NCBI GenBank assembly: GCA_964362665.1
Contig: CAYIFB010000005.1
Coordinates: forward strand, 2,556 to 66,555
DNA: 64,000 nt
Origin: an uncultured Gammaproteobacteria bacterium
GTDB taxonomy: Bacteria; Patescibacteriota; Microgenomatia; 2-02-FULL-39-11
Direction of reading: 5' to 3'
The notes under the pieces are model-generated. The model was not told the origin of the DNA, ran no database searches, and was given only the letters and a program-made list of their open reading frames with translations. This document shows, piece by piece, positions 47,019-64,000 of this stretch. Both the position numbers and the translations under genes were made by a program. The first letter of the stretch is position 1. Each line of letters opens with the position of its first letter.

Positions 47019-47144
47019 ACGAGATCCTTCGACGCGTTTCGGGACGTACCGTATGGAACATCCCTTCGCTTGCTCAGGATGACATCGCCTTCGGCGAGTC
47101 ACTTGACCATGATAATATTATAGCTTAACATAAGGCACGAATAT

Positions 47145-48179
47145 ATGACTTTTCTTTCAATCATCATACCTGTTTACAATTCTCAAAATTCGATCACCCC
47201 TCTTTTAAATTCCCTGATTTCCGCCAGGAAGGTGAACTTTAAGGAAATTGAACTGATCCTGGTGGACGACGCGTCACAGGATAATTCTTTGAAACTTATA
47301 GAGAAATGGCTTACCTTAAAGGGTGACACCTTTAAAGGTGTGAAGACTTTGAGTCTGAAGAAAAATTCCGGTCCGGCCAAAGCCCGTAATATCGGAGTCA
47401 AATACGCCAAGGGAAAGGTAGTATTATTTCTAGATTCTGATGTAGAAGTTTATAGTAATACTCTTTTTGAAATAATAAGATCCTTTAAAAATGATCCGGA
47501 TCTTCATGCTTTGACAGGGGTCTGGGATAAAAAGCAGAAAGGACATAAATTATTCCAGAAATTCAAAGCCTTGAGAGACTGGAGCTATTGGATTAATGAA
47601 CGCGATCCCCGCAATTATTATTATTTATTTTCGACCCGCATCGCCGCCATCGACAGGCAGTTATTTTTAAGGCTTGGCGGGTTTGATACGACTTATAAAG
47701 CCGCTCTGGTTGAAGATATCGAACTGACTTATAGAATTGCCAAAAGGTATGCGGTGGTTTTCGACCCGAAAGCCATTGTCCGTCATGAATTTGAGGATTT
47801 TGGACCAATTTTCCGGAAATATTTCTGGAGATCATACTACTGGAGCCGGATTTACCGCGAAAGGAAAAAATTTGATCCTGTCGCAACTACCGGTAAGGAA
47901 GCAGTGACCACAATATCGGCAGGAGGCTTGGTAGCAGTATCGGCATTGATGTTATTTAGTTCTTTAAGTCACTTAAATTATTTACAATACGTATTTCAAA
48001 CTACTTTCTACCTGCTACTGATTATTCATCTCTGGGGGGTACGCAAATTTCTCTGGTTTGTCTTTCAGGAAGAGGGAATTATTTTTGCTTTTTATTCTTT
48101 TTTGACAGGTATTGCTTTATACCTGGCGATTCTTTCCGGGGCTGCTTATTCATTGTTGTGGAACAACCGTCGGAATTAA
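47145..48179 (+). CDS. GT2 family glycosyltransferase with C-terminal membrane helices
   Basis: 'LSIIIPVYNSQNSI', 'LILVDDASQDNS', 'PAKARNIGVKYAKG', 'FLDSDVEV' (DxD). Confidence 0.7.
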   Translation: MTFLSIIIPVYNSQNSITPLLNSLISARKVNFKEIELILVDDASQDNSLKLIEKWLTLKGDTFKGVKTLSLKKNSGPAKARNIGVKYAKGKVVLFLDSDVEVYSNTLFEIIRSFKNDPDLHALTGVWDKKQKGHKLFQKFKALRDWSYWINERDPRNYYYLFSTRIAAIDRQLFLRLGGFDTTYKAALVEDIELTYRIAKRYAVVFDPKAIVRHEFEDFGPIFRKYFWRSYYWSRIYRERKKFDPVATTGKEAVTTISAGGLVAVSALMLFSSLSHLNYLQYVFQTTFYLLLIIHLWGVRKFLWFVFQEEGIIFAFYSFLTGIALYLAILSGAAYSLLWNNRRN

Positions 48180-50147: not shown

Positions 50148-50234
50148 GGGTCCTGCCGCAAGTTTCCCTCCCGCCAGTACTCGACTCGGATTCTCGTTTG
50201 CGTGCTGTCGGGATCCCTTCCTCTTGCGTCACCC
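50148..50234 (+). repeat. family A repeat copy 5, immediately upstream of the start of 48150-50147
   Basis: gggtcctgccgcaagtttccctcccgccagtactcgactcggattctcgtttgcgtgctgtcgggatcccttcctcttgcgtcaccc. Confidence 0.65.
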
Positions 50235-50352
50235 GCTTATCCTTAATTATTATCTAAAACGACGGGATTCTCAAGGAGGGGATTTCAGGTATCAGGTGTC
50301 AGGTATCAGGTGTCAGAACTAAAACCTATAACCTAAAACCTGCAACCTTACA

Positions 50353-51438
50353 TTACTGTTCGAAACAGTAAAGACGAAGCGATGAGTTGCAGGCGCTTGA
50401 GGTAAAATTTGTCCAATCGTTGGTATCAAAGTTGGCATTTTTCCCGACCCTTGATGTCCTGTTGGAAGCATTTGAAGTAAAACTCGTACAGGTAGTAGTG
50501 CCTCCTGTGTTGAGAATATTTCCGGCAATATTGGTGTTTGTCCAGACATTGGAATTTATTGTTGTATTAATCTGGCTTAAATTTATTGGAGCACCTAGAA
50601 CTCCATCTGTCAGGTCAGTCCAGTCGTCAGCGATTTTGGTAGTTTGATTAATTAAAAGATAAGGATCTAAAGAATGGGTCAGTCTGGAAGCAGCGCTCAC
50701 CGTAGTACTTGAAAGCCAGGCTTTCCATGTGCCTCCCAGCGAGGCATTGTCGGCAAGTGTTTGGCACTTGGTATCCGCACCGGATAAACCGCCCAGATTT
50801 CCGTTATAAGTTGTGGAGGAGATAAAGACTCTTTTGGCATGAAGACTACAGGCGCCGTTTCCGTTACAAGCATTGTAACCGCCTCCGCATTCTGAAAAAA
50901 TATCCAGTCCGTCTGCGATATTGACGATATTCCCGTTTGCGCATTGATTACAGGCACCGGAAGGGTTGGTGTTGTCCGGACAATACAGACCGTCATTAAT
51001 ATCCGGAGTAGTAAGAGAGAGCATGACGTTTCTGCGACGGGCATTATCCGGAGGAGAACTGGAAATGATCTGTGTCGTGTTTGATGGTAGTCCGTCTGAA
51101 TCTGAATCTATCATCCAGAGGGGAGTTCCAATATATAATGATCCACCGGTAAAGATAACAATTGATCCACCTGTCTGAATAGATAATTTTCCCATAGCAA
51201 ATTTTTGTGTGACTCCGACTGTCAAGGTGCCTGTTTTACTTACGGCGAGGACAGCGGTATTGGTTGTGTTAGTACCGGCATCCACACCATTGACATTTCC
51301 ACTAAAGGTGCAACTGGTGGAAATAGTCAAATCTCCGGATGGGGCAACATTACTACAATCAGCGGCGAAGACCGATTTAGAACGCGAAGAATAAAGAATA
51401 AAGAATAGTAAAACTATTGAAAGTAATTTCTTTTTCAA
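50353..51438 (-). CDS. secreted cysteine-containing protein, a stand-alone copy of the C-terminal roughly 330-aa module of the 1430-aa protein
   Basis: Signal peptide 'MKKKLLSIVLLFFILYSSRSKSVFA'. Shares an ordered set of motifs with the C-terminus of 55999-60291 ('WMIDSDSDGLP', 'KVF..TT', 'GADT.CQ', 'AWLS.TT', 'RLT', 'WTNT', 'TC', 'L.LYC.(E/Q)Q'). Confidence 0.55.
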   Translation of the reverse strand: MKKKLLSIVLLFFILYSSRSKSVFAADCSNVAPSGDLTISTSCTFSGNVNGVDAGTNTTNTAVLAVSKTGTLTVGVTQKFAMGKLSIQTGGSIVIFTGGSLYIGTPLWMIDSDSDGLPSNTTQIISSSPPDNARRRNVMLSLTTPDINDGLYCPDNTNPSGACNQCANGNIVNIADGLDIFSECGGGYNACNGNGACSLHAKRVFISSTTYNGNLGGLSGADTKCQTLADNASLGGTWKAWLSSTTVSAASRLTHSLDPYLLINQTTKIADDWTDLTDGVLGAPINLSQINTTINSNVWTNTNIAGNILNTGGTTTCTSFTSNASNRTSRVGKNANFDTNDWTNFTSSACNSSLRLYCFEQ

Positions 51439-51443
51439 AGAGG

Positions 51444-52004
51444 TTATCGTAAATTAATTTCTAATTGCGACGTCTGGGTTCCGCTGGCGGCTTCAAAATT
51501 AATTTTATATTTACTGTCCGTCGTATCCGATACCTGCCAAGTGCCTTCCCAAGTGCCGAAAATGTCCGATCCCTGAGTTCTCGACAGGGGAACGGTAGCC
51601 GACTTATTATCAGTAGTTACAACAGCATTAATACTGTTAATGCTTGTATCAAAATAAGCCGTGACGCTTATTTTTTGGGTATCGCCGACAAAGGGTCCGT
51701 AGGGGTCGAGATACCCTCTGGTAAATTTAGGTCCCGGGCGGTTGCCTCCGCCGACGGTGAAGCTTTTCATACTGTGCGGTAAAGGAATAGGAGATGGTGA
51801 CGGAAATAAAATCGGAGTCGAGGTGACGATTGATCGTGAGCTGCGTCGCGGAGAATCCAATCTGACACGGTTAAAATCTTGAATCTGAGGAATTGAGGGA
51901 AACAAAAAACTGAAAGTTTCAGGAATACGGTAAATTATAACTAAAATAATGATTACCGCAATTAATCCAATAACCGTAAATTTCTTTTTTCTCGACGAAA
52001 GCAT
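51444..52004 (-). CDS. small N-terminally anchored protein, paralog of 60310-60870
   Basis: N-terminal TM anchor. Pro-rich linker 'PSPSPIPLP'. C-terminal domain shares 'VTTDNKS...GTWEGTWQV.D....Y..NFEA..G' with the other copy. Confidence 0.45.
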   Translation of the reverse strand: MLSSRKKKFTVIGLIAVIIILVIIYRIPETFSFLFPSIPQIQDFNRVRLDSPRRSSRSIVTSTPILFPSPSPIPLPHSMKSFTVGGGNRPGPKFTRGYLDPYGPFVGDTQKISVTAYFDTSINSINAVVTTDNKSATVPLSRTQGSDIFGTWEGTWQVSDTTDSKYKINFEAASGTQTSQLEINLR

Positions 52005-52054
52005 AATTTACTTATATTGAATCACATTTCTGATAAATTCTCAAGAAAAAAAGA

Positions 52055-55000
52055 TTATTGCAGTACGTCCTGAATTTCCAGAGAGGTTAAATCATTGGTG
52101 TTGGCGCCTGGAACAGGAGAACTGCTGTAAGGAATATAGTTCAAGCTGGAAGAGTCTATTCTGTAATTTGACGAAGTGTTGTTATTGTAGAATTGAACTT
52201 GAATTTTATTGTAATCTTTAAGAGCCGTCACAACTGTATTTTTATTAACCCAGCCGTGGGCTATTTTGGTAAAGTTTTTTGAAGATGTTGTCTTTGTACC
52301 GTCATTATTAAAAAGCGTAATCATCATACCTGTTTTGCCAGCTAAGATGTTTGAGTCAAGATAATTCATGACATTAAAAGTAAGCGTATTACCTGCATGG
52401 CCGGCAAAGACAATAATTTGGGTAATTTTTTCGGAATTGAGTATTGAACTTGACGGAGAAAATTTGAAAGCATACTTACCGTCATAAACTTTTGAGGAAT
52501 CCAGTTTATCTCTGGCATCCAGTTTTTTGGCGGTCCAGAGGTCAGGCAGTAAATTAAAGTCAAGATCGATATCGAATGAAGAATTCAAAATCACCGGAGG
52601 ACTGACAGTTGGAGTCGGTGTTGGAGTCGGGGTAACCGTCGGAGTGGGAGACGGGGTATAAGTTGGAGTAAGAGTTACCGTTGGCGTCGGTGTGTTTGTC
52701 GGGGTTACCGTCAAGGTGACGGTAGGAGTTGGTGTAAAGGTTGGTGTTGGTGTTCGTGTAGGAGTTACAGTGGGCGTACTGGTTGGAGTAGTCGTGGGAG
52801 TAGGCGTATTTGTAGGAGTTGCTGTTGGAGTTATGGTAGGAGTTGGTGTCCTGGTCGGGGTTACCGAAGGAGTTGGCGTACTTGTCGGCGTGGAGGTAGG
52901 AGTTGGTGTAGAGGTTGGAGTTGGTGTCCTGGTCGGGGTTACCGAAGGAGTTGGCGTACTTGTCGGAGTCAATGTTACCGTCGGAGTGATTGTCGGTGTT
53001 ATTGTTGGAGTCGGTGTTCTGGTTGGGGTAACCGTAGGAGAAGGCGTACTAGTTGGCGTTAGAGTCGCCGTCGGAGTAATAGTTGGTGTTAAGGAAGGCG
53101 TTGGTGTTCTGGTTGGCCTAGACGTTGGAGAAGGAGTAGAAGTAATGGTAGGAGAAGGAATAGTCGGGTAAAAATAAAGCCCGCCGTCGGTATAATTTAC
53201 AAAGTTACCAGAAGTGACGATATTTCCCTGTGATATATCCGCAAAAACCTGGTCAAAAGAATTGGCGGAAATCTGGGTTTCTTTATTTATCCCTAGTTCA
53301 AAACTGTAAACATCGTCATTGCCGTTTCTGTAGTCTATCCAAATCATCTGATTGCCCGAAATTCTGGGATTTATCTGGCTGCAGGGGTTGGAGGTGATTT
53401 GAGTTGTGGCTGACGAGTTCAGATCGTACATATAAATATCGGAGTTTGTACCGCCCCAGACACAGGAAGTATTGCCGATATTCCTTTCGTCAGTCCAGAT
53501 TATTTTAGTCCCATCAATCGCCGGAGTGTACTGGTTGGCTGACTCGCTGGTGATTTGCGTTTCGATTCCTGAAGTTAAATTTTTCATATAAATATCAGGG
53601 TTACCGTTGCGGTTATCCTGCCAGACAATATTGTCACCTGAGACTTGAGGATTGGTCTGGTCATGGGATTCAGTTGAAACCTGTTGAATTGGACAATTGC
53701 CGCTTACTGGATCAAAAATACACGTATAGATGTCATTATTACCGCTTGAATTATCCTGCCAGACTATTCGAGTGCCTGAAACTGACGGAAAAAGATTAGA
53801 GTCGGAAGACACCGGAATTTTTTTCTCCGGACACGCTCCTCCAACAGGATCATACAGACAAGCGTAGACATCCCATTTACTGTTCCTGAAATCCTGATAG
53901 GTGATATAGTTTCCGGAAATCCGCGGATAAAGATTGACGGTAGAGCTGTATGCTAACCATCTATTACTACAGATGTTGCCATTACTTATTGTACAAACCT
54001 CCAGTTGTCCACTGGGACTAGGATCATAAGGATCATCGTAAACCCAGACAAAATTAATACCGGAAACTCCAAAATAATACTCGGGTCCCAAGACATCAAA
54101 TATCTGATATGACTGATAGCTTTCAATAGTTACCTGTACCACATCAGTAAAGATATGGTTGGTGTTGTCCGTCGCTTCCAGCTTTAGCAGGTAATCTCCC
54201 GGGGGTAGGGCGTGATAATCCCAGGTAGTTAATTTAGTAAACGTTGATACAGGGGTAAAGACCGGAGAATTTATGGGAGTCCAGACGGAGGGGTTAGTGA
54301 AAGGAGCATAAAAAAGCTGGTACTGTTTAAAATCTGTTCCAAATGCCCAGCCTAAAATATCCGTCTGAAGGTTTTGCAGGCTTAAGCCGAGCCGAAATCC
54401 CGGAAAAAAGAGTGCTGCATCCAAAGCGGAATTCATACTGACTGCCTTAAATGCATTAACTCTTCCCGCTCCGGTCTTCTGGTCAAAACCGGCAATATCT
54501 ACATCATCTGCAGAGGATTTGAGTATCTGCCTGACATTTTCCCCGGAAAGTGCGGGATTATGGGCTTTAACGAGCGCTGCAACACCTGATACATACGCGG
54601 CTGACATTGAGGTACTTCCTAAACGCAAATAATTTGTTCCAACAATCAGATTAGGATCACAGACGCCAATGTAGCAGGTGGATGTTTTTAGGGATAGAAT
54701 GTTATTTTGGGGTAAATAGTTTGGCGGTGGATTTGTTGTGCCGGAGCCTGGCGCACTAAGGTCAAGCTGGACGCCGTAATTGGAAAAAGAGGACAGTTGG
54801 TCATTTTGATCCAGAGACGCAACCACAACCGGTTTTTGCTGACCCCACGAGGCACGCACCTGGTTTTGCGGGGCATAATACCTGACATCATCACTGAAGT
54901 TGCCGGCGGCAAAAACTACCACAGACCCGGCGTTGATGGCATTGGAAATTGCCGTCTGCAGCAAGTTATAGTAATAACAGCGTGAGTTGCAGCTCCAGCT

Positions 55001-55966
55001 GTTATTGATTACTTTAGCGCCTTTAGTGACTGCTCGATTAATGGCGTCTGCCGCCATAGCTAAGGTGCCCGAACCATCATAATCAAATGCTTTAAAAGCT
55101 ATAATTTTCGATTCAGGAGCCACCCCGATAACACCGAGATTATTATTTCCCATGGCCGCAATAATTCCGGCGACGTGCGTACCATGACCATTATCGTCTT
55201 TGACATCACTCGTACCAATAAATAAATTATATCCACCCGGGGCAACTTGAGGACATGTATTGGCATCGACTTGGCTTAGAGTACATCCTCCAAATTCGGG
55301 ATGAGTATAATCGATTCCTGTGTCAATTGTGGCCACCAGTACGCTGTTACCACTTCCATCTTTGCCTTTCGTGATATCCCAGGCCGGTTCCAGATTCATT
55401 TTACTTGTCTTTAGAGCCCAGAGATCGTCGTATCCCTGTCCCCAGCTGTTAGACGAGGAAAAGTAAGGGTCATTGGGGGTAAAAGAAGTTTTTAAAATAT
55501 AGTTTGGCTGGGCATATTCGACGACTCCTGATTTCAGTAAGCTATTGATGATTTCCGGAACAGGCACGTCTGATGAGGAAAAAACAATTTTATAGATTTT
55601 ACTTAAATCAGTACCGGTTGGGGATTTAGTTTTAAAAACATTACCAAATGATTTTATGGGATACCTCTTATGGAGGTTAGAGATGGACGCGGGAATTGAA
55701 TTTGCATCCAAATCTGTCAGGGTGACATTGTCTTTTAGTAAATCTTTGCCAACACTGTCGCTTTTGACCGACAAGCCTTTCTGGTCGTCTTTCAGTTTGA
55801 GGATAACTTCACCGTGGACAAATTCTTCGCTTTTAACTTCTTTATTTTTTTTATTAGTCTGACTGTTTCCTTGGATAATCTGCGGATGGAGGAAAAAAAT
55901 AAAGACGGTTAAGAAAGAGATTATCAGGACGAGGTAACTTCGTAATTTAGTCTTTAACACATTCAA
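52055..55966 (-). CDS. giant secreted subtilisin-family (S8) serine protease with PD40-type beta-propeller repeats, a roughly 210-aa Pro/Thr-rich linker and a C-terminal domain of unknown function
   Basis: Signal peptide. Catalytic-triad blocks '[15 protein letters not shown]' (Asp), '[15 protein letters not shown]' (His), '[16 protein letters not shown]' (Ser). Five repeats of '(S/D)G..I(V/T/I)(W/Y)QD.RNGN.DIY...L' (PD40-like). Linker '[13 protein letters not shown]...' repeated many times. Confidence 0.8.
52600..53160 (-). repeat. tandem low-complexity (ACN-CCN)n coding repeat encoding the Pro/Thr linker
   Basis: Plus strand reads (ggt/agt/tgt...gg(a/t/c)gt)n, giving the antisense VGVGV shadow ORF 52692-53171. 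The sense strand encodes the TPT/PTP repeat. Confidence 0.7.
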
Positions 55967-55998
55967 AAGGCGATTAACGAAAAGGATTATAAACTACT

Positions 55999-58900
55999 TT
56001 ATTGCTGGATACAATAGAGTGCGAGAGTTGCGTTATTACAATAGGCAGATTGAGCTGGAAGTTGAGTCCAAGTCGATGTAGCGCTATCGTTTGTTCCGAT
56101 TTTGCCAGTATTAGAAGATGTCCCGTCTGTCCAATTTTGACAGGTTCCGGCAAGGGTATTATCATTAATTGTTCCGGTTGAGGTTGTATTTGTCCAAATA
56201 TTTTTTTGAGTAGTGATCCCTGCTGCGCTTTTACTGATGGGATTGACCAAACTACCGCTAGAGAATCCCGCAAAACTATTGGCGACTACGGTTCCATCCA
56301 CCAAAGTGTACTTGTAAGGTCCGGGAGTCAATCGGGCAGGAGCAGGAGTTGTAGTATTAGACAACCATGCTCTATAAGTGCCATATAATCCGGCAGCATT
56401 TGCTTGATTTTGGCAGAAAGTATCAGCTCCGCCTACCCCAGCAAAATTTCCATCATGGTTAGTAGTCGTATAAAATACTTTTCTAGGTGTACAGTCTCTA
56501 TTGGCAGTGGCTAAAGCCGGATCGCAGTCCCGTGTAAACCAGCCGTTAGTAGCTAGTTGAGAAGGTTTTTTATAACCGGGCGGAACCGTAATCATGATAG
56601 TTGGCGTCAGGCTATCAGGGTAGTTGTCTCCGTCAGCATCAGGGTAGACAGGATAGCCTTGCTGGATTTTAGAATTAGTAGCGTGAACAATCGATCCATT
56701 GATAATAATTTTTTGGCCAGGTTCCCAGACAAAAGTATAATTGGAAGGCATCGTAAAAGTGGTACCGCTGCCGATAGTAAGATTTCCGCCCGAAACAAAA
56801 TCAATTCCAGTGGCCGGAGTACAACTCCAGGTAAAATTGACATTTCCAGTGCCGGTATTACAGATTCCGGCAGTTCCGGTTGGCATTGGGGTGGTAATAA
56901 TAGAAGGAGCGGGATTCACAGGAAGAGATGTTCCTGTAGAATTTTGGGCTCTGACACGATAATAGTATGTGGTTCCCGGTAGAAGATAATCTACTGCTAC
57001 GGCCATAGTGGGTGCGGGTATAAACATTCCCGGCGGGGTGTTATCAGCTGTTTCTCCAAATGAGGGAATATATTGGTTAAAGGTTGAATCACGGGCAACT
57101 TCCACATAATATCCTGTCGGTCCAGGATTTGAAGACCAGTTTATCTGAAAGTATTTATAGGTGACGTTTGAAGCTGCGTTGAGGGTCGGAGTAGAACTGT
57201 AGGTTGTAACAGTGCCGGGAGATGTATAACTACTAACAGAACCCGCAGAGTTGACAGATGCCACTTTATAGTAATAAGTAGTTCCAGCAGAAACTCCCGT
57301 ATTCACGGAAGCAAAAGCGGTACCAACAGAGCCAGGATTATAGCTTGAGAGGGGTGAGGAAAAATCAGAGTTGTCGTCGACCATGACATTATAGGTTGAG
57401 GCGCCTGTCATAGAATCATATGAAAAGAAAAAACCGCTATCAGCGATGTTGAAAGACTGCAACGAAACATTGGTCGGAGTAGTCGGAGCAGTAAGGACTG
57501 TAACTTTATTGGATAGTGCACTATCACCGCTGGCAAATGTAGCTTTCAGGCAATAATAATATGTAGTATTGGCGCTTAAACCATTGGTGATGGAATATTG
57601 GGTAACATTACCGATATTATAAAGATTGCAGGTTCCTCCACCACAATTAGATGAAGTAATTGGAGATGTACTGCAATCAGAATTGGTCGTGACGCTTAAT
57701 TTATAGCTGGTAGCCCCGGTCACAGCCGCCCAACTACCGGTGAAACTGTTTTCATTGATAGTATTTGGTTTGATGGAAACTGCCGTAAGTGCCCAACCCT
57801 GAGCACCGCTTGAGGGAATAGTCCAAGACATCGTAACAGAATTAGCGCCTGATTGTGTGCTTCCCCTGCCATTCCATGCATTGTCAGAAGAAGTACTCCA
57901 CTGGAGTGTTTGACTAGCGCCTTTAGTCGCATCTGTCGTAGTATTCCAAAAAGTTAAAGCATCGACTACGATTTCTCCCGGGGCGCTTGTAACATTTACC
58001 GAAGCAGAGGTCACCCCAGATCCTCCAAAATTAGAAGCAAAAATTCCTAGAGGAGTTATTTGATTTGCCCCAGTAAAACTTATTGCGCCGGTTTGCATCC
58101 AGTCATTGCCTCCGGGGGTAACCACTATAGTATTTGTTCCGGTAGGAGGATTTACTAAATACCATAATTCCGAGCGAGAAAAATCACCGGATCCAGCCTG
58201 CACCGCCCCGCTTTTGGTTAGTGCAACTCCATTGTATGTCACACTGGTGACAGAGTTATATGATCTTTTACTCACTCCAACTACCAATAAGCGGTTTACT
58301 CCTGATACTGTATGAGACCAACTGAGACTTGCTACATTTGCTCCGGCTGAAGATGAAGTGGTGTCGATTGCCAAAGTTGAGGTTGCAGAATTGGCAACGG
58401 GAGTTGCAAGAGTGGTGACTGTAATTGTGCTAGAGTTTACACCAGTTCCACCACCCACAGAATCGGTTGCCCTTACTCTGTAATAATAGGTAGTGTTGGC
58501 TGATAAACCTGTGACAGAGTAGGTAGTGACATTACCTACAGCCTTAGCGTTACATGACCCTCCTCCACAGCCTGTTGCTACAAACGAGGTAAAGCCGCTG
58601 TCTGTAGCCACATCCAGCGTATACCCATCTGCACCGCTTCCTGACTGGGTATTCCAGTTGGCAGAGAAGCTTGTATCAATTACATTTGTTGCGGCGGTCG
58701 CTGCAACTTGAGCCGGTTGATAAGTGATAGTAAGGAATGGTTTATATGCGGCATTAGTATTATCCGCCGTGGCAAGGTTGATATCTTCACGTCCGGCTGG
58801 AGCAGTGTTATTAGTATCTTTATTGCTACTGAGGCAATAATAAGTAGATCCGCCATAACTGGTATCTTTAGTAATCCATGACGTACTTAAATTAGCGCTT

Positions 58901-60291
58901 GCGTATTGAGTATTGATGACTACATTACTTGAGTTTTTCCAACTATTATCGCTAGTGGCTGCCAGACACCCGTCGTAAGCCGCCTCCATATTTGAGGTAG
59001 TGAGAGGATCATTGGCGTTCCAGTTGTAATCGATTACGTTGGTAGTAAAATCTACAGCGCTGTTATCAGTTATCATTACCATTGTCAGGTTGACCTGATT
59101 TATGACCGCGCTATCAGGAATAGAGCTGGTGGTAAATTCTAAAAAGGATCGAAGGACAGTATAGGTGACTGAAACTAATTTCTGTCCTACAGTTCCCGCT
59201 ACTTGAGTTGTCCCGACAGCATCTGCCGTATTTCTAGCACCGGTATATGTCAAACCACTTCCACTGACGGATCCATCTGCGGTGGTTCCGGCAAAGTCCG
59301 GATCGATCGTCACCGGATAGCTTGTCCCTAACTTTTTCAGCCAACTGACAGGAACAGAAGTATAGAGATACCAAGTATTCCCTTCTTTTATCAAGAATCT
59401 TCTTATGGATGCAGAATTATCTTTAGCGTCATGTCCTTCCGGGAAAGGAAAGATGGTGGTTTTACCGTTGTCTGTTAGGACAAGAGAATCTTTTGTTGTA
59501 AGCTCGTATTTAGCATTATTAGCATTTAGTGATTGGCCATTTAAAGTAAGATTGGAGGTCGTGGAAATCGTAGCCTTTAAAGTGAGGAGATCATCCAGAG
59601 ATGCATTATCAACAAGAGACGGATCTTCCAGGACTAAATCTTCACGAGCTCCAAGGTCATAGGCATTAATGATAAGTTTGACGCGATCACCATCCAAGGT
59701 AAGAAGATTATCAGTCTTATTTACTTTAGGATTATCAAGATTGTTTATCCTTATAAAAGCGTTGTTGATAGGATTATAAATTCCCAGTGTCGGAGCTCCA
59801 CTTTCCAGAAGAGAGTCACCGTTCTTTTGGGTTATTGCTCCATTCTTTGACAAATATAGTCCTACTCCATTTTTGGTCTGGTAGTCGTATCTGGGATCTG
59901 TACTTTTCTCCAGTGAATAATCAATCGGTTGCCAAATACCAGGTGCAACCTCGTAGTTCTGTTTAAAGCCGGTAAAAAGAGCAGTCACAGTACCGTCAGC
60001 ATTTTTAAAATGGGTGGAATAGGCATCTTTTGATACTACCTCTTTATCCCGAAGATCCATCTTGTCTGCCTGAGTATCAATCCAACGCACGCCTGTTTTG
60101 GGGCCGATGGAGTTATTGGCATAGACTTTTTGGGAGGATAATTTTGGCAGTACCAGGTAATAAGCACCAATTAAAAGTCCGCCAATACTGGAGACAAACA
60201 ACAAAGAACAGATAATCCTTCGATAAAACTCAGGACAGGCAGGTAACAGGGAAAATCTTGACTTGAAATTACGCCGGGCAGATTTTTTCAT
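55999..60291 (-). CDS. 1430-aa N-terminally anchored surface protein with four fibronectin type III-like repeats and the C-terminal Cys-containing module shared with 50353-51438
   Basis: N-terminal TM 'LLFVSSIGGLLIGAYYLVL'. Four repeats ending in 'TTYYY(R/C/K)V(R/K)A' with upstream 'W....GA..Y' (FN3 pattern). C-terminal 'RKVFYTTT...GADTFCQ...AWLSNTT...RLT...WTNT...TCQNWT...LALYCIQQ'. Confidence 0.7.
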   Translation of the reverse strand: MKKSARRNFKSRFSLLPACPEFYRRIICSLLFVSSIGGLLIGAYYLVLPKLSSQKVYANNSIGPKTGVRWIDTQADKMDLRDKEVVSKDAYSTHFKNADGTVTALFTGFKQNYEVAPGIWQPIDYSLEKSTDPRYDYQTKNGVGLYLSKNGAITQKNGDSLLESGAPTLGIYNPINNAFIRINNLDNPKVNKTDNLLTLDGDRVKLIINAYDLGAREDLVLEDPSLVDNASLDDLLTLKATISTTSNLTLNGQSLNANNAKYELTTKDSLVLTDNGKTTIFPFPEGHDAKDNSASIRRFLIKEGNTWYLYTSVPVSWLKKLGTSYPVTIDPDFAGTTADGSVSGSGLTYTGARNTADAVGTTQVAGTVGQKLVSVTYTVLRSFLEFTTSSIPDSAVINQVNLTMVMITDNSAVDFTTNVIDYNWNANDPLTTSNMEAAYDGCLAATSDNSWKNSSNVVINTQYASANLSTSWITKDTSYGGSTYYCLSSNKDTNNTAPAGREDINLATADNTNAAYKPFLTITYQPAQVAATAATNVIDTSFSANWNTQSGSGADGYTLDVATDSGFTSFVATGCGGGSCNAKAVGNVTTYSVTGLSANTTYYYRVRATDSVGGGTGVNSSTITVTTLATPVANSATSTLAIDTTSSSAGANVASLSWSHTVSGVNRLLVVGVSKRSYNSVTSVTYNGVALTKSGAVQAGSGDFSRSELWYLVNPPTGTNTIVVTPGGNDWMQTGAISFTGANQITPLGIFASNFGGSGVTSASVNVTSAPGEIVVDALTFWNTTTDATKGASQTLQWSTSSDNAWNGRGSTQSGANSVTMSWTIPSSGAQGWALTAVSIKPNTINENSFTGSWAAVTGATSYKLSVTTNSDCSTSPITSSNCGGGTCNLYNIGNVTQYSITNGLSANTTYYYCLKATFASGDSALSNKVTVLTAPTTPTNVSLQSFNIADSGFFFSYDSMTGASTYNVMVDDNSDFSSPLSSYNPGSVGTAFASVNTGVSAGTTYYYKVASVNSAGSVSSYTSPGTVTTYSSTPTLNAASNVTYKYFQINWSSNPGPTGYYVEVARDSTFNQYIPSFGETADNTPPGMFIPAPTMAVAVDYLLPGTTYYYRVRAQNSTGTSLPVNPAPSIITTPMPTGTAGICNTGTGNVNFTWSCTPATGIDFVSGGNLTIGSGTTFTMPSNYTFVWEPGQKIIINGSIVHATNSKIQQGYPVYPDADGDNYPDSLTPTIMITVPPGYKKPSQLATNGWFTRDCDPALATANRDCTPRKVFYTTTNHDGNFAGVGGADTFCQNQANAAGLYGTYRAWLSNTTTPAPARLTPGPYKYTLVDGTVVANSFAGFSSGSLVNPISKSAAGITTQKNIWTNTTSTGTINDNTLAGTCQNWTDGTSSNTGKIGTNDSATSTWTQLPAQSAYCNNATLALYCIQQ

Positions 60292-60309
60292 TTTTAATTT
60301 TCACGTTTT

Positions 60310-60870
60310 TTATCTGAATATAGGATTTAAGGTTGACTTGGCACCGCTTTCGGCGATTGCTTCTATATTCATTATATATTTAAAATAATTGCCATCATCC
60401 ACAATCCAGGCGCCTTCCCATTTGCCGTTGTTGGCTGTTCCTGAGACCAGTTTCAATTCATGCGGGGTAGATTTATTGTCTGTAACTGTTGTTAGTATGA
60501 CACTTTTGACAGGAGATTTGTAGTCGACCATAAGGCTGACTGTCTGGTTTCCCCCTTTTATGATATCCAGAGGATTGATGGTGAGTTTACTGATAGATGG
60601 ACCGGAGTTATTTCCACTTTGGACTTCAAAAACCTGTATTCCTGTAGGAAGTGGTCTTAAATTGCCGGGAATGACAGTAGGGAAAGGGGTGGGAGTGAGA
60701 GTTATTGTCGGAGCGGGAGATATAGTATTGGCTAATTTCTTGAAAAATGGTTTAAAGCTGGGGGAAAATAAACCAACCAACAAACCGATGATAATGACCG
60801 CGATAAATAAAACCGCGATTCGTAACGAAGAGTTACTACTACTTTTGCTTTTCTTAACCTGGGCAGTCAT
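60310..60870 (-). CDS. small N-terminally anchored protein, paralog of 51444-52004
   Basis: TM anchor 'IAVLFIAVIIIGLLVGLF'. 'PTITLTPTPFPTVIP' linker. C-terminal 'VTDNKSTPHELKLVSGTANNGKWEGAWIVDDGNYFKYIMNIEA'. Confidence 0.45.
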   Translation of the reverse strand: MTAQVKKSKSSSNSSLRIAVLFIAVIIIGLLVGLFSPSFKPFFKKLANTISPAPTITLTPTPFPTVIPGNLRPLPTGIQVFEVQSGNNSGPSISKLTINPLDIIKGGNQTVSLMVDYKSPVKSVILTTVTDNKSTPHELKLVSGTANNGKWEGAWIVDDGNYFKYIMNIEAIAESGAKSTLNPIFR

Positions 60871-60946
60871 AAAAAAGATAATATCTCTTAAATTTTAGTG
60901 TATAAAAATAGATAGAAGTTTGTCAAGCGCATTTAATTTATTATCC

Positions 60947-61015
60947 ACCCCCGGTACTATGCTTACTTTGTTTCGTGGTTTACATCCACGCAAACAAAGA
61001 GCGCAAGTACGGGGC
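60947..61015 (-). promoter_or_regulatory. roughly 69-nt near-perfect nested palindrome between the fibre-like gene stop and the small anchored gene start (terminator, attenuator or protein-binding site)
   Basis: ccccggtact...agtacgggg outer stem enclosing ctttgtttcgtgg / ccacgcaaacaaag inner stem. Sits in a 150-nt intergenic gap within an otherwise co-directional gene block. Confidence 0.4.
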
Positions 61016-61022
61016 AAGCAGT

Positions 61023-64000
61023 TTAATTGATAATCCACCAATTGAATTTCACATCATAAGGAATTGGCGAGTCCAGAGCGACAGTAAAGTATGAACCGGC
61101 CTTTTTATCTGCCACAAAGATGACTTTATTGGCAGTTGGTGAAGCGGGGGTCATATATATTAATGTATGTTCGGTGATTTGACTATTATAAATGATAAGC
61201 TGCTGTGAGCCTGCCGGTATGATATTCTGGCCTGTTGTCCCCTGGGAATCGGCGCTTGGGATATTGATTCCATGCAGGCTTAAGTTCTCTGCAGCTGACA
61301 AAAGACCGGAGACGGAAGATGGCGAAGCTTCTTTATAATTCAAATTCAGCTTATTGAGCGTAAGTTCACCAGATATTGTGGCATTACCCGATGCGTCAAA
61401 AGATGCTGCAGGTTCTGCGCTATTACCTTTAATAATCAGCTTGCCGAAGCTATCCGGATCGGTAGTGTTGCTATTTGAGAGATTTATCGCAAGGTCTTTG
61501 CCAAGCGGGCTGATCTGGTCTGTCACTATTCCTTCACGGGCGATGATCTGCCCAGCCACATCCAGATTGCCGAATTTATCTATAACCAGCCGTCCGCCGA
61601 GGAAGTCTATACTATTCAGTGAGCTAAGATAAAGAGTATTTCCTAAGGAGGCAACTTTATTATTTTCAATGACAATTCCGCCATCGACGATAAGTTGTCC
61701 TGAAATAGTTGTGTCTGCCAGAGAGCTTTGGCCATATACCGTCAGGTCTGAAAGGGTATGCACCTGGTTTTGAGAACTGGTGTCAGTTGGCTGGGTAAGG
61801 ACAATATTGTCAGTCAGAGCCACGTTGTTATCAGGATTGGGGATAGATGTCGGATTGATAAAGGCCGTACTCGTGGCGATAAATTGCTCGACACTTTGAT
61901 TGAGCTGTGAAGATGATGTCAAAAATCCTGTCAGCTGGTCAAGGAGCGTGGCCGAACTTGATGATGTGTCGGCAGATGAAGTGGAAGCATTGAGCGTTGA
62001 TAAATCAATTGTGGGCGTCGGACTTGGCGTGTCAGTCGGACTTGGTGCGATAGTCGGAGTTGGTGCTTCCGTGATACTGGCGGTAATATTTTGATTTTCC
62101 AGAGTGGCAACTCTTCCCAAAAGGTCACCGAAGGAAGACTGAAGATTGTTTATTTGATCAGACTCTATCGTGCCGTTTACTTTAAGTTTATTTACAGACA
62201 ATTCCCCTGAGATAGTGGCTTCACCGGCAGATAATTTACCGGTTTGTGTTTCTTGGGAAGTTATAATTCCGGCAACTGTAGCCTCATTAAATACCGCTTG
62301 ATCAGACTTCAGAGTTCCGGCGAAAGTAGCGTTACCTGAAGCGTCTATTTCCGCAACAGTCTGTCCGTCTTTACCTATAACAGAAATGTTACCAGCGGAA
62401 GTTGATGTATTTTGACTAAGGTCAAATTCAATCTTTCCTTGGTCGGACAAAGGCGCGATTGAGTCAGTCTTCAGCCTTGCTAAATTGGCGGTACCTGTTG
62501 CTGTAAGATCACCGACAGGGGAGAGGATTTGGTTATTACCAAGCTGGGTAAGGTTGCCGACCGTCAGATTTTCAACTTTCAAATTTTTGATGACGGCAGA
62601 ATTGGCAACTATCGTGTCAAAAATTCCCTGTGCTGCATCCACAATTCCGGCTTTAATATTGGCGATTATGGCATTTGAATACGAGGCAAAGTCATAAATG
62701 ACGTCGCCTGATTTAGTACGCAGTTCATAGATGTTATTTTCACTAGGTTGATTCAGGCTGGCACTTTCACTGGAAATAAGTATGTCATAGCCGGAAATTC
62801 CACCTAATGAGTCCTGAGGTAGGTTCCCGTTTTGATCCAAAGTTACTTGATTATCAGGGCTGTTCAGGACGTATCCTAAGCTGTCGGAATATCGGATATT
62901 TTGATAATTTTGTGCATCAAATCTGGGTGCAGTCAGGCGGTAGGCGATACTTGTCGGTCGCCCTGAATAGATTGACAGCTGATTTAGGTTTTTATCAATT
63001 TTATACCAAGTTCTGGTGTTATCAGATGGAGTCAAAAGCACGACCATTTTATCAAGATTATTCGCAATATCAGTGACTTTAGAGAACAGCCACAAATCAG
63101 AACCTTTCAGCGAATTGTTAAAGTCGATAATCTTACGGTATCCGATACCCGGCACCAATTCATCGGTATTAACAAAGCCCGTGGTTTCCTCTTTGACTCC
63201 TGTCATGGCGGGTAGGTAGGTGGCGTATTTTTCACCATTTATTGTATATGGAGGATCAATTAAACCCACATCAATCTTACCGGTACCGGTACCGACTACC
63301 AGAAAGTTATTGGTTGTGCCGTCGCCGACAATATTTACTTTGCCGTTGATGTCAAGCATATAACCATTGGAAGGATTAGTAGTACCTATACCTAAATAGC
63401 CTGTATTGATATATGATTCGTTGGATGAGTTAGCGTCTAGTAGTACTGCGACGGCATTTGACGAATTATAGATGTTCAGCGATGTATTGACAGAATTATT
63501 GCCAAGTCCGATATAGCCGGACGTATCAGCAGCTATGAAAAGCTGGTTATTGACGGACCCTCCCGAGGCTTTAATAGTTACAAGCGAGGTATTTGCCGTA
63601 TCACCGAAAGATATAATAGGTACTCCTTGAGCAAAGGAAAATCTGTGAGGTCCACTTCCTTCAGCTAAGAGTCCTTTGCCGGCTACAGTCGCTGCAGTAC
63701 CGGATGTTGCTGCATAATTGGACATGGCACTTGCTTCCTCAAGTTGTGCACCCCAGGCCCAGACCGTATATCCGCCGCTTAGTACATATCCAATATAAAA
63801 GTTTACACCGGTATCAGCTCCACCTACGGCTTGAGTTATTGAGAACCGTTGCCATCTATTGGTAACTGTTATTGATTGTAATCCTCCGTTAGCATTAGTT
63901 GAGTCTTGAATTGCCAAGCTAATTGTCGTGTCTGACGCAGCTTTCAACCAGACAGATCCGGTAAAAGTTTTAGAGCCAACAGATGCTCCATAAGAATAAG
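61023..64000 (-). CDS. large repetitive fibre-like surface protein (at least 974 aa, N-terminus beyond the window), Asn/Ser/Thr/Gly-rich with a short PT linker
   Basis: Repeated '(I/F)DASGNAT(F/I)(A/S)G.L' units. Gly/Asn-rich beta-rich segments. 'EAPTPTIAPSPTDTPSPTPT' linker. No signal peptide at the first in-window Met, so the ORF probably continues upstream. Confidence 0.55.
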   Translation of the reverse strand, partial: YSYGASVGSKTFTGSVWLKAASDTTISLAIQDSTNANGGLQSITVTNRWQRFSITQAVGGADTGVNFYIGYVLSGGYTVWAWGAQLEEASAMSNYAATSGTAATVAGKGLLAEGSGPHRFSFAQGVPIISFGDTANTSLVTIKASGGSVNNQLFIAADTSGYIGLGNNSVNTSLNIYNSSNAVAVLLDANSSNESYINTGYLGIGTTNPSNGYMLDINGKVNIVGDGTTNNFLVVGTGTGKIDVGLIDPPYTINGEKYATYLPAMTGVKEETTGFVNTDELVPGIGYRKIIDFNNSLKGSDLWLFSKVTDIANNLDKMVVLLTPSDNTRTWYKIDKNLNQLSIYSGRPTSIAYRLTAPRFDAQNYQNIRYSDSLGYVLNSPDNQVTLDQNGNLPQDSLGGISGYDILISSESASLNQPSENNIYELRTKSGDVIYDFASYSNAIIANIKAGIVDAAQGIFDTIVANSAVIKNLKVENLTVGNLTQLGNNQILSPVGDLTATGTANLARLKTDSIAPLSDQGKIEFDLSQNTSTSAGNISVIGKDGQTVAEIDASGNATFAGTLKSDQAVFNEATVAGIITSQETQTGKLSAGEATISGELSVNKLKVNGTIESDQINNLQSSFGDLLGRVATLENQNITASITEAPTPTIAPSPTDTPSPTPTIDLSTLNASTSSADTSSSSATLLDQLTGFLTSSSQLNQSVEQFIATSTAFINPTSIPNPDNNVALTDNIVLTQPTDTSSQNQVHTLSDLTVYGQSSLADTTISGQLIVDGGIVIENNKVASLGNTLYLSSLNSIDFLGGRLVIDKFGNLDVAGQIIAREGIVTDQISPLGKDLAINLSNSNTTDPDSFGKLIIKGNSAEPAASFDASGNATISGELTLNKLNLNYKEASPSSVSGLLSAAENLSLHGINIPSADSQGTTGQNIIPAGSQQLIIYNSQITEHTLIYMTPASPTANKVIFVADKKAGSYFTVALDSPIPYDVKFNWWIIN

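Follow-up and report, generated by a model that had tools for sequence, protein, structure and literature searches.

Host binding in Saccharibacteria is mediated by lectin-like minor pilins (PMC11623550), and Bdellovibrio, a bacterium living on bacteria, recognises its prey via fibres (MATs) with interchangeable lectin-type tips, including the C-type-lectin fold (PMC10769870). The 64-kb stretch of DNA analysed here (the window) contains a block of genes encoding a fibre, small anchored proteins, sugar-binding-type adhesins and a subtilase (Table 1). The set of fibre, small anchored protein and adhesin has not been described before and is common to many ultra-small groundwater bacteria. Its probable role is adhesion of the cell to a partner, as suggested by fold and domain analogies, namely the endostatin/C-type-lectin fold, beta-helix adhesins, a collagen-like fibre and links to pilins. 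The best explanation, with about an even chance of being correct, is that the block corresponds, in this genome, to a conserved cell-surface attachment operon specific to CPR/Patescibacteria. The interpretation made in the initial annotation, a candidate attachment or surface apparatus, is partly supported.

Gene arrangement and protein architecture

The ORF calls confirmed the six consecutive minus-strand genes claimed initially (A to F), with operon-like intergenic spacing and a G+C content that climbs from about 0.39 to 0.43 at the block. No terminator-like sites were found in the intergenic gaps from E to A, and a promoter-like site retrieved by a consensus scan may possibly mark the start of an E-D-C-B-A transcript. 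Export signals were present in A, C and D, and transmembrane (TM) anchors in B and E. An HMM search of the window retrieved two small genes (B and E) and two proteins with a shared module (A and D), and no more. The small paralogues had been thought to bracket the block; instead, each directly precedes a shared-module protein, with gaps of 18 nt (E to D) and 5 nt (B to A), and the arrangement is better read as two tandem cassettes, E-D and B-A, each consisting of an anchored Ig-like protein and a secreted protein.

Table 1. Coordinates of the genes, domains and sites considered in the window
Feature	Position (nt)	Strand	Position (aa)	Description or evidence
TPR665	48150..50147	(-)		polytopic membrane protein, C-terminal TPR repeats
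A	50353-51438	(-)		361 aa; secreted, signal peptide
A endostatin-fold domain	50356-50835	(-)	202-361	
A beta-helix module	51073-51360	(-)	27-122	HMM
B	51444-52004	(-)		186 aa; small anchored protein, paralogue of E
C	52055-55966	(-)		1303-aa subtilase
D	55999-60291	(-)		1430-aa exported protein
D endostatin-like domain	56002-56484	(-)	1270-1430	phmmer, Pfam
D beta-helix module	56608-56853	(-)	1147-1228	module HMM, E = 1.2e-15
E	60310-60870	(-)		186 aa; small anchored protein
Promoter-like site	60897..60926	(-)		TTGACA-18-TACACT, just upstream of E; consensus scan, 10/12 matches
F	61023..64000	(-)		C-terminal 991 aa of fibre protein; gene runs past window edge
Fcterm	61026..61754	(-)	749-991	conserved C-terminal fibre-family domain; HMM, iE 1e-93
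Fmid	62193..63413	(-)	196-602 of window ORF	conserved fibre-family core; iterated HMM, iE 3.6e-152

The reading frame of F is still open at position 63998, so that the 974 aa given by the ORF tool are a minimum. The overlapping contig L001 lengthens the protein to at least 1408 aa and supplies the upstream part with at least 97 collagen-like GXY triplets. F contains a GTA head-spike-fibre domain (NF048003; 77.5 bits versus a cutoff of 36) and Fmid, whose alignment has invariant columns and the motifs GIGTxxP..KLxVxG, IDPxYxIxGxKYATY..MxGxKEExxG and SYRLTAPRFD. Among related loci, Fmid was found in 30 ORFs and the C-terminal domain in 11, the latter being common to the upstream genes of L004, L006, L009, L010, L016, L023, L026, L027, L028 and L032. 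The initial description of a fibre-like protein of at least 974 aa holds, but its DASGNAT repeats come down to a motif present just twice in F.

The small proteins share one architecture: in E, a TM helix at the N-terminus is joined through a PT linker to an Ig-like domain at the C-terminus (aa 73-186), and B likewise has a TM helix, a linker and an Ig-like domain (aa 74-186; family HMM, E = 1.7e-29). As claimed before, B is homologous to E (33% identity over 118 aa, E = 4e-18); it is nearer to small proteins from other genomes (35-40%) than to E and is, by sequence comparison, an old paralogue of the latter. The family comprises 1,168 clusters at 50% identity, for which no matches were found in Pfam, NCBIfam or PHROG. 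Its Ig domain is C-terminal in every case, on differing anchors: a TM helix with a PT linker (B and E), a prepilin/T2SSG N-terminus (L050, L061, L072, L076 and L015), or PG_binding_1 with three FN3 domains (L014). Because of this constant position on different anchors, the Ig domain is read as a distal unit displayed at the surface.

Protein A comprises a signal peptide, the beta-helix module, a DxDxDG motif, a Cys-rich linker and an endostatin-fold domain (AF2 model, pLDDT 91). In D, an uncharacterised N-terminal region is followed by four FN3 repeats with a 215-aa insert (aa 528-628, 844-932, 946-1030 and 1038-1134; all four, as annotated, found by Pfam and self-matches), the beta-helix module and an endostatin-like domain. 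Both adhesins thus end in an endostatin-fold (C-type-lectin-like) head, the four FN3 repeats of D forming an upstream stalk. The head of D matches the endostatin chains 1dy0 and 1koe over the entire domain (phmmer, E = 6e-4), as well as Pfam DUF1554 (26.5 bits). A is 37% identical to the C-terminus of D over 163 aa (E = 6e-26), and the homology reaches upstream into the beta-helix module (HMM, E = 1e-15 to 2e-22). A had been called a free copy of the C-terminal Cys module of D; the copy in fact spans the whole C-terminal architecture of about 290 aa, which is more than a generic domain. From locus to locus, partner proteins differ greatly in size and in their head, which may be a LamG, endostatin-like, DUF2341, disintegrin-like or other domain, and in other CPR proteins DUF1554 heads occur in fusions with pilins, LamG, FN3, collagen and cohesin/dockerin. 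The endostatin-like head was absent from the module proteins of 76 sampled loci, and is therefore interchangeable and says little on the core function.

The subtilase C carries a signal peptide, an S8 domain (aa 206-501; Peptidase_S8, 175.7 bits) with the D/H/S motifs DTGID, HGTHVAG and GSTSMSAA (read from the translation), beta-propeller repeats at about aa 640-930 (five TIGR04275 repeats and TolB-like matches), a PT linker (aa 934-1124) and an uncharacterised C-terminal part of 178 aa, which agrees with its annotation as a subtilase with propeller repeats and a PT linker. Its proposed membership of one system with the other genes is not supported, as S8 occurs in only two ORFs across 76 related loci; judged by this distribution, C is accessory and outside the conserved core.

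Conservation of the gene order and its surroundings

Sixty distinct loci were chosen solely by the motif of the small family. The module was present in the downstream same-strand neighbour in 33 of the 44 evaluable cases (median gap, 5 nt); of the 11 negatives, eight were interrupted by a contig end. Upstream, Fmid or Fcterm was found in 13 of 23 neighbours. The expected partner domain was missing from about a quarter of the downstream and nearly half of the upstream neighbours. The order F-like gene, small gene, module gene is repeated across dozens of divergent CPR loci, where gaps are close to zero and overlaps common. In L004, the order F-E-D is kept at 70-76% identity, the D orthologue (75% identical) lying directly after that of E, and L016 contains F-like, small, D-like and TPR665-like genes. 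The synteny is reciprocal: in a reverse search, A orthologues in L082 and L084 were directly preceded by a small-family gene, even amid housekeeping genes, the minimal pair of small gene and A standing alone among such genes. L080 is an exception, where a different TM protein is encoded upstream of the A orthologue. The homologues are linked and not scattered in related loci, in line with the earlier claim of one functional system as opposed to unrelated surface genes.

A large glycan-synthesis island adjoins the block. The neighbouring TPR665 is 30% identical over 611 aa to a protein of L010 (2692-4707) that matches Wzy_C at 34.6 bits, and its homologues in L007 and L008 match Wzy_C at 58-61 bits; TPR665 itself gave TPR matches only and no direct Wzy_C match, even at E <= 1. 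The family model retrieved 10 ORFs across 76 loci. These relationships identify TPR665 as a divergent member, by homology, of a Wzy_C/TPR family recurring near these loci, and as a candidate O-oligosaccharyltransferase. Its annotation as a Wzy_C/TPR neighbour is thereby borne out for the TPR repeats and for the recurrence of such proteins near these loci, but not by a direct Wzy_C match in the window protein.

Proposed mechanism and alternative explanations

The core of the attachment operon would consist of a secreted fibre (F), with a collagen-like triple-helix region, a jelly-roll head-spike-fibre domain, Fmid and the C-terminal domain; a small bitopic protein (E, B), whose TM helix and Pro/Thr linker would present the Ig-like domain of about 110 aa beyond the wall; and a Sec-exported protein (D, A), encoded immediately downstream, with a short right-handed beta-helix module with DxDxDG motif. 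The anchored Ig domain may serve as a docking or adaptor unit by which the cognate beta-helix-module protein is kept non-covalently on the cell surface, so that lectin-tipped adhesins would be held beside the collagen-like fibre. The lectin-like heads and the fibre may in turn attach to a host cell or substrate by binding its glycans or proteins, a role in host attachment assuming an episymbiotic lifestyle. The adjacent Wzy_C/TPR-type enzyme probably adds O-glycans to the PT-rich linkers, drawing on the output of the neighbouring glycan locus, and C would be a lineage-specific accessory, possibly involved in maturation or shedding.

Alternatively, the block may be an accessory set of a type IV pilus (T4P), with pilin-derived small proteins, and with the fibre and module proteins as PilY1-/tapirin-like tip adhesins presented on the pilus and not on the cell body. 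The Ig domain is indeed fused to a canonical G|FTLIE prepilin N-terminus in seven distinct proteins, five of which were confirmed by Pfam (N_methyl in 5/5, T2SSG in 3/5). In L053, the triad is surrounded by four N_methyl proteins that carry LamG, FN3 or Lcl_C domains. In L009 and L032, the gene right after that of the module protein encodes an N_methyl pilin, P0221, P0222, P0236, P0242 and P0249 are fusions of DUF1554 with a pilin, and the beta-helix module resembles tapirins, which are encoded beside a T4P locus (10.1101/359786). However, B and E have no N_methyl match, no Gly at -1 and no Glu at +5, neither an ORF with a prepilin motif nor a pilus machinery gene is present in the 64-kb window, and the strict prepilin motif occurs in only 19 of 76 loci. 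Moreover, tandem small genes combine a pilin-type and a TM-type copy, indicating that the TM type is a distinct form, and the pilus explanation is considered unlikely. The link to type IV pilins is an important addition that had been missed before.

An S-layer-like envelope layer, in which B and E are membrane stalks (cf. archaeal SlaB) holding a canopy of F, D and A that builds the envelope without binding a host, would suit the TM anchor, extended PT linker and distal beta-sandwich, the large, probably glycosylated secreted partners and the adjacent glycan island. It is nevertheless improbable, as the extreme variation of the partners suits adhesins more than a lattice-forming protein, the minimal pair is found by itself amid housekeeping genes, and the SlaB match is not above those to dozens of Ig-like folds. 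Dedicated help with folding is a frequent requirement of beta-helix proteins, as in autotransporters and two-partner secretion substrates, and this requirement, together with the tight coupling to the downstream gene, would agree with a small protein that is a chaperone-like export, folding or maturation factor for the beta-helix protein and not a surface receptor. Such a function has little probability too: the Ig domain, placed distally on pilins and on a PG_binding_1-FN3 stalk, fits display and not a membrane-proximal chaperone, and the long PT linker sets it far from the membrane. Finally, the matches of F to PHROG tail-fibre families and to the NCBIfam 'phage head spike fiber' domain, as well as the G+C shift, could point to a phage-derived tail-fibre or receptor-binding module (a prophage remnant) or to an accidental cluster of unrelated surface genes. 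This is very improbable. The PHROG matches fall on the collagen repeats, phage structural or replication genes are absent nearby, and 2.9 million IMG/VR contigs contained no relative of the small family or Fmid, whereas the same patterns found nine genomic and 64 metagenomic loci; accidental clustering is excluded by the conserved synteny.

Comparison with known systems

Wzy_C-family enzymes O-glycosylate pilins. TPR665 resembles the PglL/TfpO-type O-oligosaccharyltransferases of this family in being a polytopic protein with Wzy_C homologues, encoded beside pilin-like and PT-rich surface proteins and a glycan island; it differs by the lack of a direct Wzy_C match and by its C-terminal TPR domain, its activity being a predicted one. 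The GXY triplets of F match the models of the collagen-like adhesins Scl1/Scl2 and Legionella Lcl in the repeat region (about 144 bits), but these scores are well under the family cutoffs (325-500), F has no LPXTG motif or Lcl_C domain, and the non-collagen parts are unrelated. A hypothetical likeness to the cohesin-dockerin pairs of the cellulosome lies in an anchored beta-sandwich with co-encoded secreted proteins carrying a small DxDxDG-type module, and other CPR DUF1554 proteins carry Pfam Cohesin and Dockerin_1 (P0225, P0227). Yet no Cohesin or Dockerin HMM matches were found in A, B, D and E, and the module folds as a beta-helix instead of an EF-hand pair.

At the cell surface, Len proteins act as adhesins that bind host matrix and complement regulators. 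The heads of A and D share four conserved Cys with the endostatin domain of collagens XV/XVIII, DUF1554 (PF07588) and leptospiral LenA-F, and gave borderline DUF1554 and Endostatin HMM matches and a weak LenA/B match. Their identity to endostatin is 19%, and they sit here behind a beta-helix module and a Cys-rich linker, in a CPR bacterium of monoderm type. A Len orthologue was ruled out (LenAB model score of 31.9 versus a cutoff of 300). As to tapirins, related loci likewise sit among pilin genes, but there is no sequence similarity, the module measures about 95 aa versus about 350 aa for the tapirin domain, the window has no T4P genes, and tapirins bind cellulose. F resembles Bdellovibrio MAT and phage tail fibres as a long fibre with the GIGTxxP..KLxVxG motif, the only match of Fmid in Pfam and PDB being a weak profile match to the fibre motif of the MAT fibre 8ol4 (E = 0.012), and phage fibres by its GTA head-spike-fibre domain. 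Unlike MATs, F has no S74 chaperone domain, and its Fmid and C-terminal domain have no known counterpart; MATs do not feature a coupled small anchored protein, and the lectin-fold head resides here on the separate proteins A and D instead of on the fibre.

Gene order and its conservation

The six consecutive minus-strand genes reported in the initial annotation (A to F; see the table) were all recovered as described by ORF calling. The intergenic gaps on this strand measure 152 nt (F-E), 18 nt (E-D), 32 nt (D-C), 50 nt (C-B), and 5 nt (B-A), and 205 nt separate A from the next gene. A consensus scan revealed a promoter-like site directly upstream of E; a search for terminator-like sites in the gaps from E to A retrieved none, which is weak evidence. 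The exact sequence of the region was retrieved from contigs of groundwater of Hainich well H51 (0.1 and 0.2 µm filter fractions). The G+C content amounts to 0.42-0.45 at positions 50001-64000 versus mostly 0.35-0.41 at positions 1-50000, and this increase may simply reflect the Thr/Pro/Gly/Ala-rich proteins encoded.

Coordinates of features in the window and of Ig-domain fusions at related loci
Feature	Position	Strand	Size	Remark
A, module protein	50353-51438	-	361 aa	
B, small anchored protein	51444-52004	-	186 aa	
C, subtilase	52055-55966	-	1303 aa	
D, module protein	55999-60291	-	1430 aa	
E, small anchored protein	60310-60870	-	186 aa	
F, fibre protein	61023 to past the window end	-		frame still open at 63998
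Spike-fibre domain of F (NF048003)	aa 360-523 of L001 ORF; across the window end, about 63681-64000	-		HMM
TPR membrane protein (TPR665)	48150-50147	-		
X609 paralogue	45273-47102	-	~540-610 aa	polytopic membrane
X609 paralogue	8108-9841	+	~540-610 aa	polytopic membrane
X609 paralogue	9830-11509	-	~540-610 aa	polytopic membrane
X609 paralogue	39824-41635	-	~540-610 aa	polytopic membrane
X609 paralogue	26114-27733	+	~540-610 aa	polytopic membrane
NPCBM/NEW2 membrane protein	4695-6527	-	610 aa	
Prepilin-Ig fusion	L050:345-1217			N_methyl/T2SSG N-terminus
Prepilin-Ig fusion	L061:1022-1906			N_methyl/T2SSG N-terminus
Prepilin-Ig fusion	L072:7437-8339			N_methyl/T2SSG N-terminus
Prepilin-Ig fusion	L076:3441-4292			N_methyl/T2SSG N-terminus
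Prepilin-Ig fusion	L015:799-2790			N_methyl/T2SSG N-terminus
Stalk with terminal Ig domain	L014:651-3179		843 aa	PG_binding_1 + 3xFN3

Gene order was compared across loci chosen solely by two small-protein motifs, namely nine from species-representative genomes (MAGs labelled Microgenomates, Patescibacteria, Saccharibacteria, and Uhrbacteria, and two TPA records labelled Gammaproteobacteria) and 64 from metagenomes. Iterated HMMs built from the window proteins were run over 500 called ORFs and matched 94 of them for the small anchored proteins, 51 for the beta-helix module of A and D (the same 51 from either seed), 30 for the conserved core of the fibre protein (Fmid), 11 for its C-terminal domain (Fcterm), ten for TPR665, and six for the membrane protein family X609. 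Removal of duplicates left 60 loci, in which the module was present in 33 of the 44 evaluable downstream same-strand neighbours of small genes (median gap 5 nt, several overlaps), eight of the 11 negatives being cut by a contig end. Fmid or Fcterm occurred in 13 of the 23 upstream neighbours. A small protein plus a module protein form the minimal unit, and fibre, small protein, and module protein form the common core. This triad order, represented by F-E-D in the window, was found in L004 (70-76% identity), L009, L016 (which has F-like, small, D-like, and TPR665-like genes), L023, L032, L052, L053, L058, L063, L077, and L078 as well. The window contains one fibre gene and two anchor-adhesin pairs (E-D and B-A). 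Orthologues of A found by protein search lie amid housekeeping genes, with a small-family gene directly 5' in L082 and L084. In L080, the A orthologue has no small gene directly 5', and a 197-aa TM-anchored protein (9370-9963) without a match to the small-family HMM is found instead, which could be a non-homologous anchor replacement. Scattered and unlinked homologues, which would have spoken against the single functional system initially proposed, were not encountered; the order is conserved, and the block very probably constitutes one such system.

Anchors, heads, fibre, and protease

The homology of the two small anchored proteins B and E was confirmed (33% identity, E-value 4e-18). Both consist of one TM helix, a Pro/Thr linker, and a beta-sandwich of about 110 aa, for which an AF2 model of a small protein gave a pLDDT of about 80-90 (69 overall). 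A word-indexed protein search from E returned merely five close relatives and missed B, a 24-sequence profile added little, and a genome scan with E as confirmation sequence gave 39 pattern matches, none of which was confirmed; two alignments were too diverse for patterns, and a consensus-like alignment (A5) gave working ones. When 1.84 billion representatives were searched exhaustively by profile, 1,168 clusters passed E <= 1e-3, of which 629 also passed E <= 1e-10; the length is 170-290 aa in nearly all of them, and they share the TM helix, the PT linker, the motifs RPLPxGK, IDPYDP, TDNK, and GxWEGxW, and a C-terminal TLR. No model in Pfam, NCBIfam, or PHROG matched this family. A recent local duplication was ruled out, B and E being old paralogues; E shares 70% identity with its orthologue in L004, and B has nearer relatives than E among the small proteins of other genomes. 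Neither protein carries the prepilin N-terminal motif (Gly at -1, Phe/Met at +1, Glu at +5; PF07963), their N-termini (KKKFTVIG in B, SLRIAVLF in E) lacking both the Gly and the Glu, and no N_methyl match was obtained at E <= 0.1. Where two small genes occur in tandem, the product of the first (280-320 aa) has a canonical prepilin sequence (G|FTLIE) at its N-terminus and ends in the same Ig domain; N_methyl was found in all five fusions tested and T2SSG in three of them. The Ig domain is invariably located at the extreme C-terminus of these pilin fusions and of the peptidoglycan-binding stalk. Its occurrence on three kinds of anchor (TM helix, pilin, and PG_binding_1 stalk) indicates that it is a distal, surface-displayed unit.

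Protein A had been described as a free copy of the C-terminal Cys module of D. The relationship holds (37% identity over 163 aa, E-value 6e-26), but the copy is wider, comprising the whole C-terminal architecture of about 290 aa. A contains a signal peptide, a module of about 95 aa, an invariant DxDxDG motif, a Cys-rich linker, and a DUF1554 domain, the module (A 27-122, D 1147-1228) being recovered reciprocally by HMM with E-values of 1e-15 and 2e-22. D starts at its N-terminus with a hydrophobic segment for export or anchoring, followed by about 470 unmatched residues, the four FN3 repeats originally noted (with a 215-aa insert after the first), and the part in common with A; the 470 residues and the insert had no match in PHROG, NCBIfam, or Pfam. 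Both proteins matched DUF1554 (PF07588; gathering threshold 27.5 bits), with scores just above (A, 27.7) and just below (D, 26.5) the threshold, and precomputed Pfam data list the domain in A and nearly all of its orthologues. The domain has the three-dimensional endostatin fold, and all of 28 sequences compared keep C225, C317, C350, and C358, which may form the two disulfides known from endostatin. Compared with the LenA/LenB outer membrane proteins (NF047482), the likeness is at the domain level only (31.9 bits versus 300 required for the equivalog).

DUF1554 is widespread in CPR bacteria (source names including Levybacteria, Daviesbacteria, Beckwithbacteria, and Patescibacteria), where its fusion partners are pilins, LamG, FN3, collagen, and cohesin plus dockerin, as expected of an interchangeable binding head. 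It was found in none of the 500 ORFs and in none of the module proteins of 76 sampled loci, which bear LamG_3, DUF2341, disintegrin-like, or unknown domains in its place. One 1195-aa module protein 3' of a small gene (L010:6355-9939) combines LamG_3 with a Hint/intein-type domain (Intein_splicing 35.5 bits, PT-HINT). Four CPR homologues of the domain (P0225, P0227, P0214, and P0199) carry Cohesin and/or Dockerin_1 domains, PT linkers, and a DUF1554 head, and share a conserved N-terminus of (K/R)GF plus hydrophobic residues, resembling a class III (pilin-type) signal in which the Glu at +5 is missing. The use of cohesin and dockerin in CPR bacteria seems to merit separate study; the anchored and secreted partners of the present block belong to neither Cohesin (PF00963) nor Dockerin (PF00404).

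The fibre protein F had been reported as at least 974 aa long with DASGNAT repeats. The lower bound stood and was raised to 1408 aa by contig L001, which lacks the N-terminus too, but DASGNAT occurs in merely two copies. The ORF tool called a complete 974-aa ORF (61023-63947, TTG start); the frame is open up to the window edge, so 63947 is no true start. Beyond position 64000 (L001:1-880), F contains at least 97 unbroken GXY triplets (GPTGSTGATG...), which, judged from their sequence, form a collagen-like triple-helix region. This stretch is followed by a spike-fibre jelly-roll domain belonging to the phage/GTA head spike fiber family (77.5 bits versus a cutoff of 36), Fmid, a short PT linker, and the conserved C-terminal domain. 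Matches to the collagen-like adhesins Scl/Lcl (NF038329, NF046116) were limited to the GXY repeats and fell below the family cutoffs (about 144 bits versus 325 and 500), and the many PHROG tail-fibre matches lie on the collagen repeats as well. No match was found for the non-collagen part in a PDB sequence search, nor for the C-terminal domain in PHROG, NCBIfam, or Pfam. The Fmid profile gave a sole, weak match to PDB sequences (E = 0.012), at the GIGTxxP..KLxVxG motif of the Bdellovibrio MAT fibre 8ol4. Bdellovibrio recognises its prey with MAT fibres, adhesins that resemble phage tail fibres and have tips of lectin fold (PMC10769870). Short Fmid proteins (390-534 aa; L012, L013, L052, L053, L058, and L063) share a mature N-terminus, KPNPGHSxxExECxTNxC, directly after the signal peptide, which matched no known family.

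The assignment of C as a subtilase was borne out by a full-model match to Peptidase S8 (175.7 bits), with intact Asp, His, and Ser motifs in the translation (DTGID, HGTHVAG, and GSTSMSAA). It further contains five beta-propeller repeats, a 190-aa PT linker, and a C-terminal domain of 178 aa without matches in PHROG, NCBIfam, or Pfam; kinship of this domain with the spike-fibre domain of F was ruled out. The S8 model matched two of the 500 ORFs, and a role for the subtilase as a conserved member of the system was ruled out.

Glycan-synthesis surroundings

A large island of glycan-synthesis genes occupies the remainder of the window, encoding GT2 and PMT-type GT-C glycosyltransferases, DegT, hexapeptide, SDR, and GFO sugar-modifying enzymes, and an HldE-like kinase/cytidylyltransferase. 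The five X609 paralogues had no Pfam match and may be GT-C-like glycosyltransferases; homologues lie within a few kb of small-family genes in L007, L008, and L034. Another membrane protein of the window carries a C-terminal NPCBM/NEW2 glycan-binding domain (118 bits). The block was initially placed beside a Wzy_C/TPR enzyme and a glycosylation locus, of which the island and the TPR repeats were retrieved, but TPR665, encoded next to A, showed no direct match to Wzy_C (PF04932) at E <= 1. Over 611 aa, it shows 30% identity to L010:2692-4707, itself scoring 34.6 bits for Wzy_C (cutoff 31.7), and it shares a profile with proteins 3' of small genes in L007 and L008 that score 58-61 bits for Wzy_C. 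The Wzy_C family includes the O-oligosaccharyltransferases PglL/TfpO, which glycosylate pilins. This kinship and this role make it reasonable to suppose that the PT linkers may be O-glycosylated.

Functional interpretation and known systems

The gene set is conserved, tightly spaced, and co-directional, and all members bear export signals or anchors; they comprise a collagen-like fibre, a beta-helix module, a head of endostatin fold whose structural relatives are of adhesin type, and an Ig domain that is anchored and distally placed. An attachment model based on anchor docking is about equally likely to hold or to fail. In this model, the Ig domain would serve as the surface dock of the module protein and possibly of the fibre, glycans of a host or substrate would be bound by the heads and the fibre, glycosylation would occur on the PT linkers, and the subtilase might mature or shed components. 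A wider and more doubtful proposal is that the Ig-like domain of about 110 aa is a CPR-wide docking receptor, carried by a TM stalk, a type IV pilin, or a peptidoglycan-binding stalk, and capturing secreted proteins via the beta-helix/DxDxDG module.

The main rival, in which the proteins form an accessory complex at a pilus tip, seems unlikely. Pilin genes directly follow the module protein in L009 and L032, and the triad of L053 lies amid four N_methyl proteins with LamG, FN3, or Lcl_C domains; the window itself contains no ORF with a prepilin motif. Less likely still are an S-layer-like scaffold, a chaperone role of the small protein, and an origin by accident or from a phage. The phage origin was rejected on viral-contig scans, the small family and Fmid having no confirmed relatives in 2.9 million IMG/VR contigs, whereas the same patterns gave 73 cellular loci, and no phage genes are present near the block.

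Host recognition and attachment by CPR/Patescibacteria are largely obscure beyond a few cultivated Saccharibacteria, in which lectin-like minor pilins are implicated (PMC11623550). The locus exposes a widespread, unannotated three-gene core in which fibres and exchangeable heads of lectin type are combined with anchors in the membrane, a pilin, or the wall; its small-protein family counts over 1,000 clusters (50% identity) and is absent from Pfam, NCBIfam, and PHROGs. If docking holds, it would offer a testable molecular model of surface display and host attachment across Microgenomates-type CPR bacteria, a rule for finding adhesins (the gene after the small gene), and, for the glycosylation machinery in which these genomes abound, candidate substrates. 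If the docking receptor is real, it would amount to a plug-in system like that of cohesin and dockerin but with unrelated folds, and ultra-small episymbionts could use it to exchange lectin heads (endostatin-like, LamG, and others) and so determine their host range.

The literature searched contained no description of the conserved triad or of the small-protein family, and no account of such a system for CPR combined with endostatin or DUF1554. Endostatin/DUF1554/Len adhesins, tapirins, MAT fibres, collagen-like adhesins, and the cohesin-dockerin logic each resemble some part of the locus, the resemblance failing family thresholds or remaining at the domain level for all but DUF1554, S8, and the spike-fibre domain. 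Of F, only the GIGT fibre motif gave a match, a weak one, to the MAT fibres, which are trimeric and beta-helical with an N-terminal anchor and a variable tip. Bacterial surface adhesin operons are already known as a kind; the triad and its small-protein family appear to be new.
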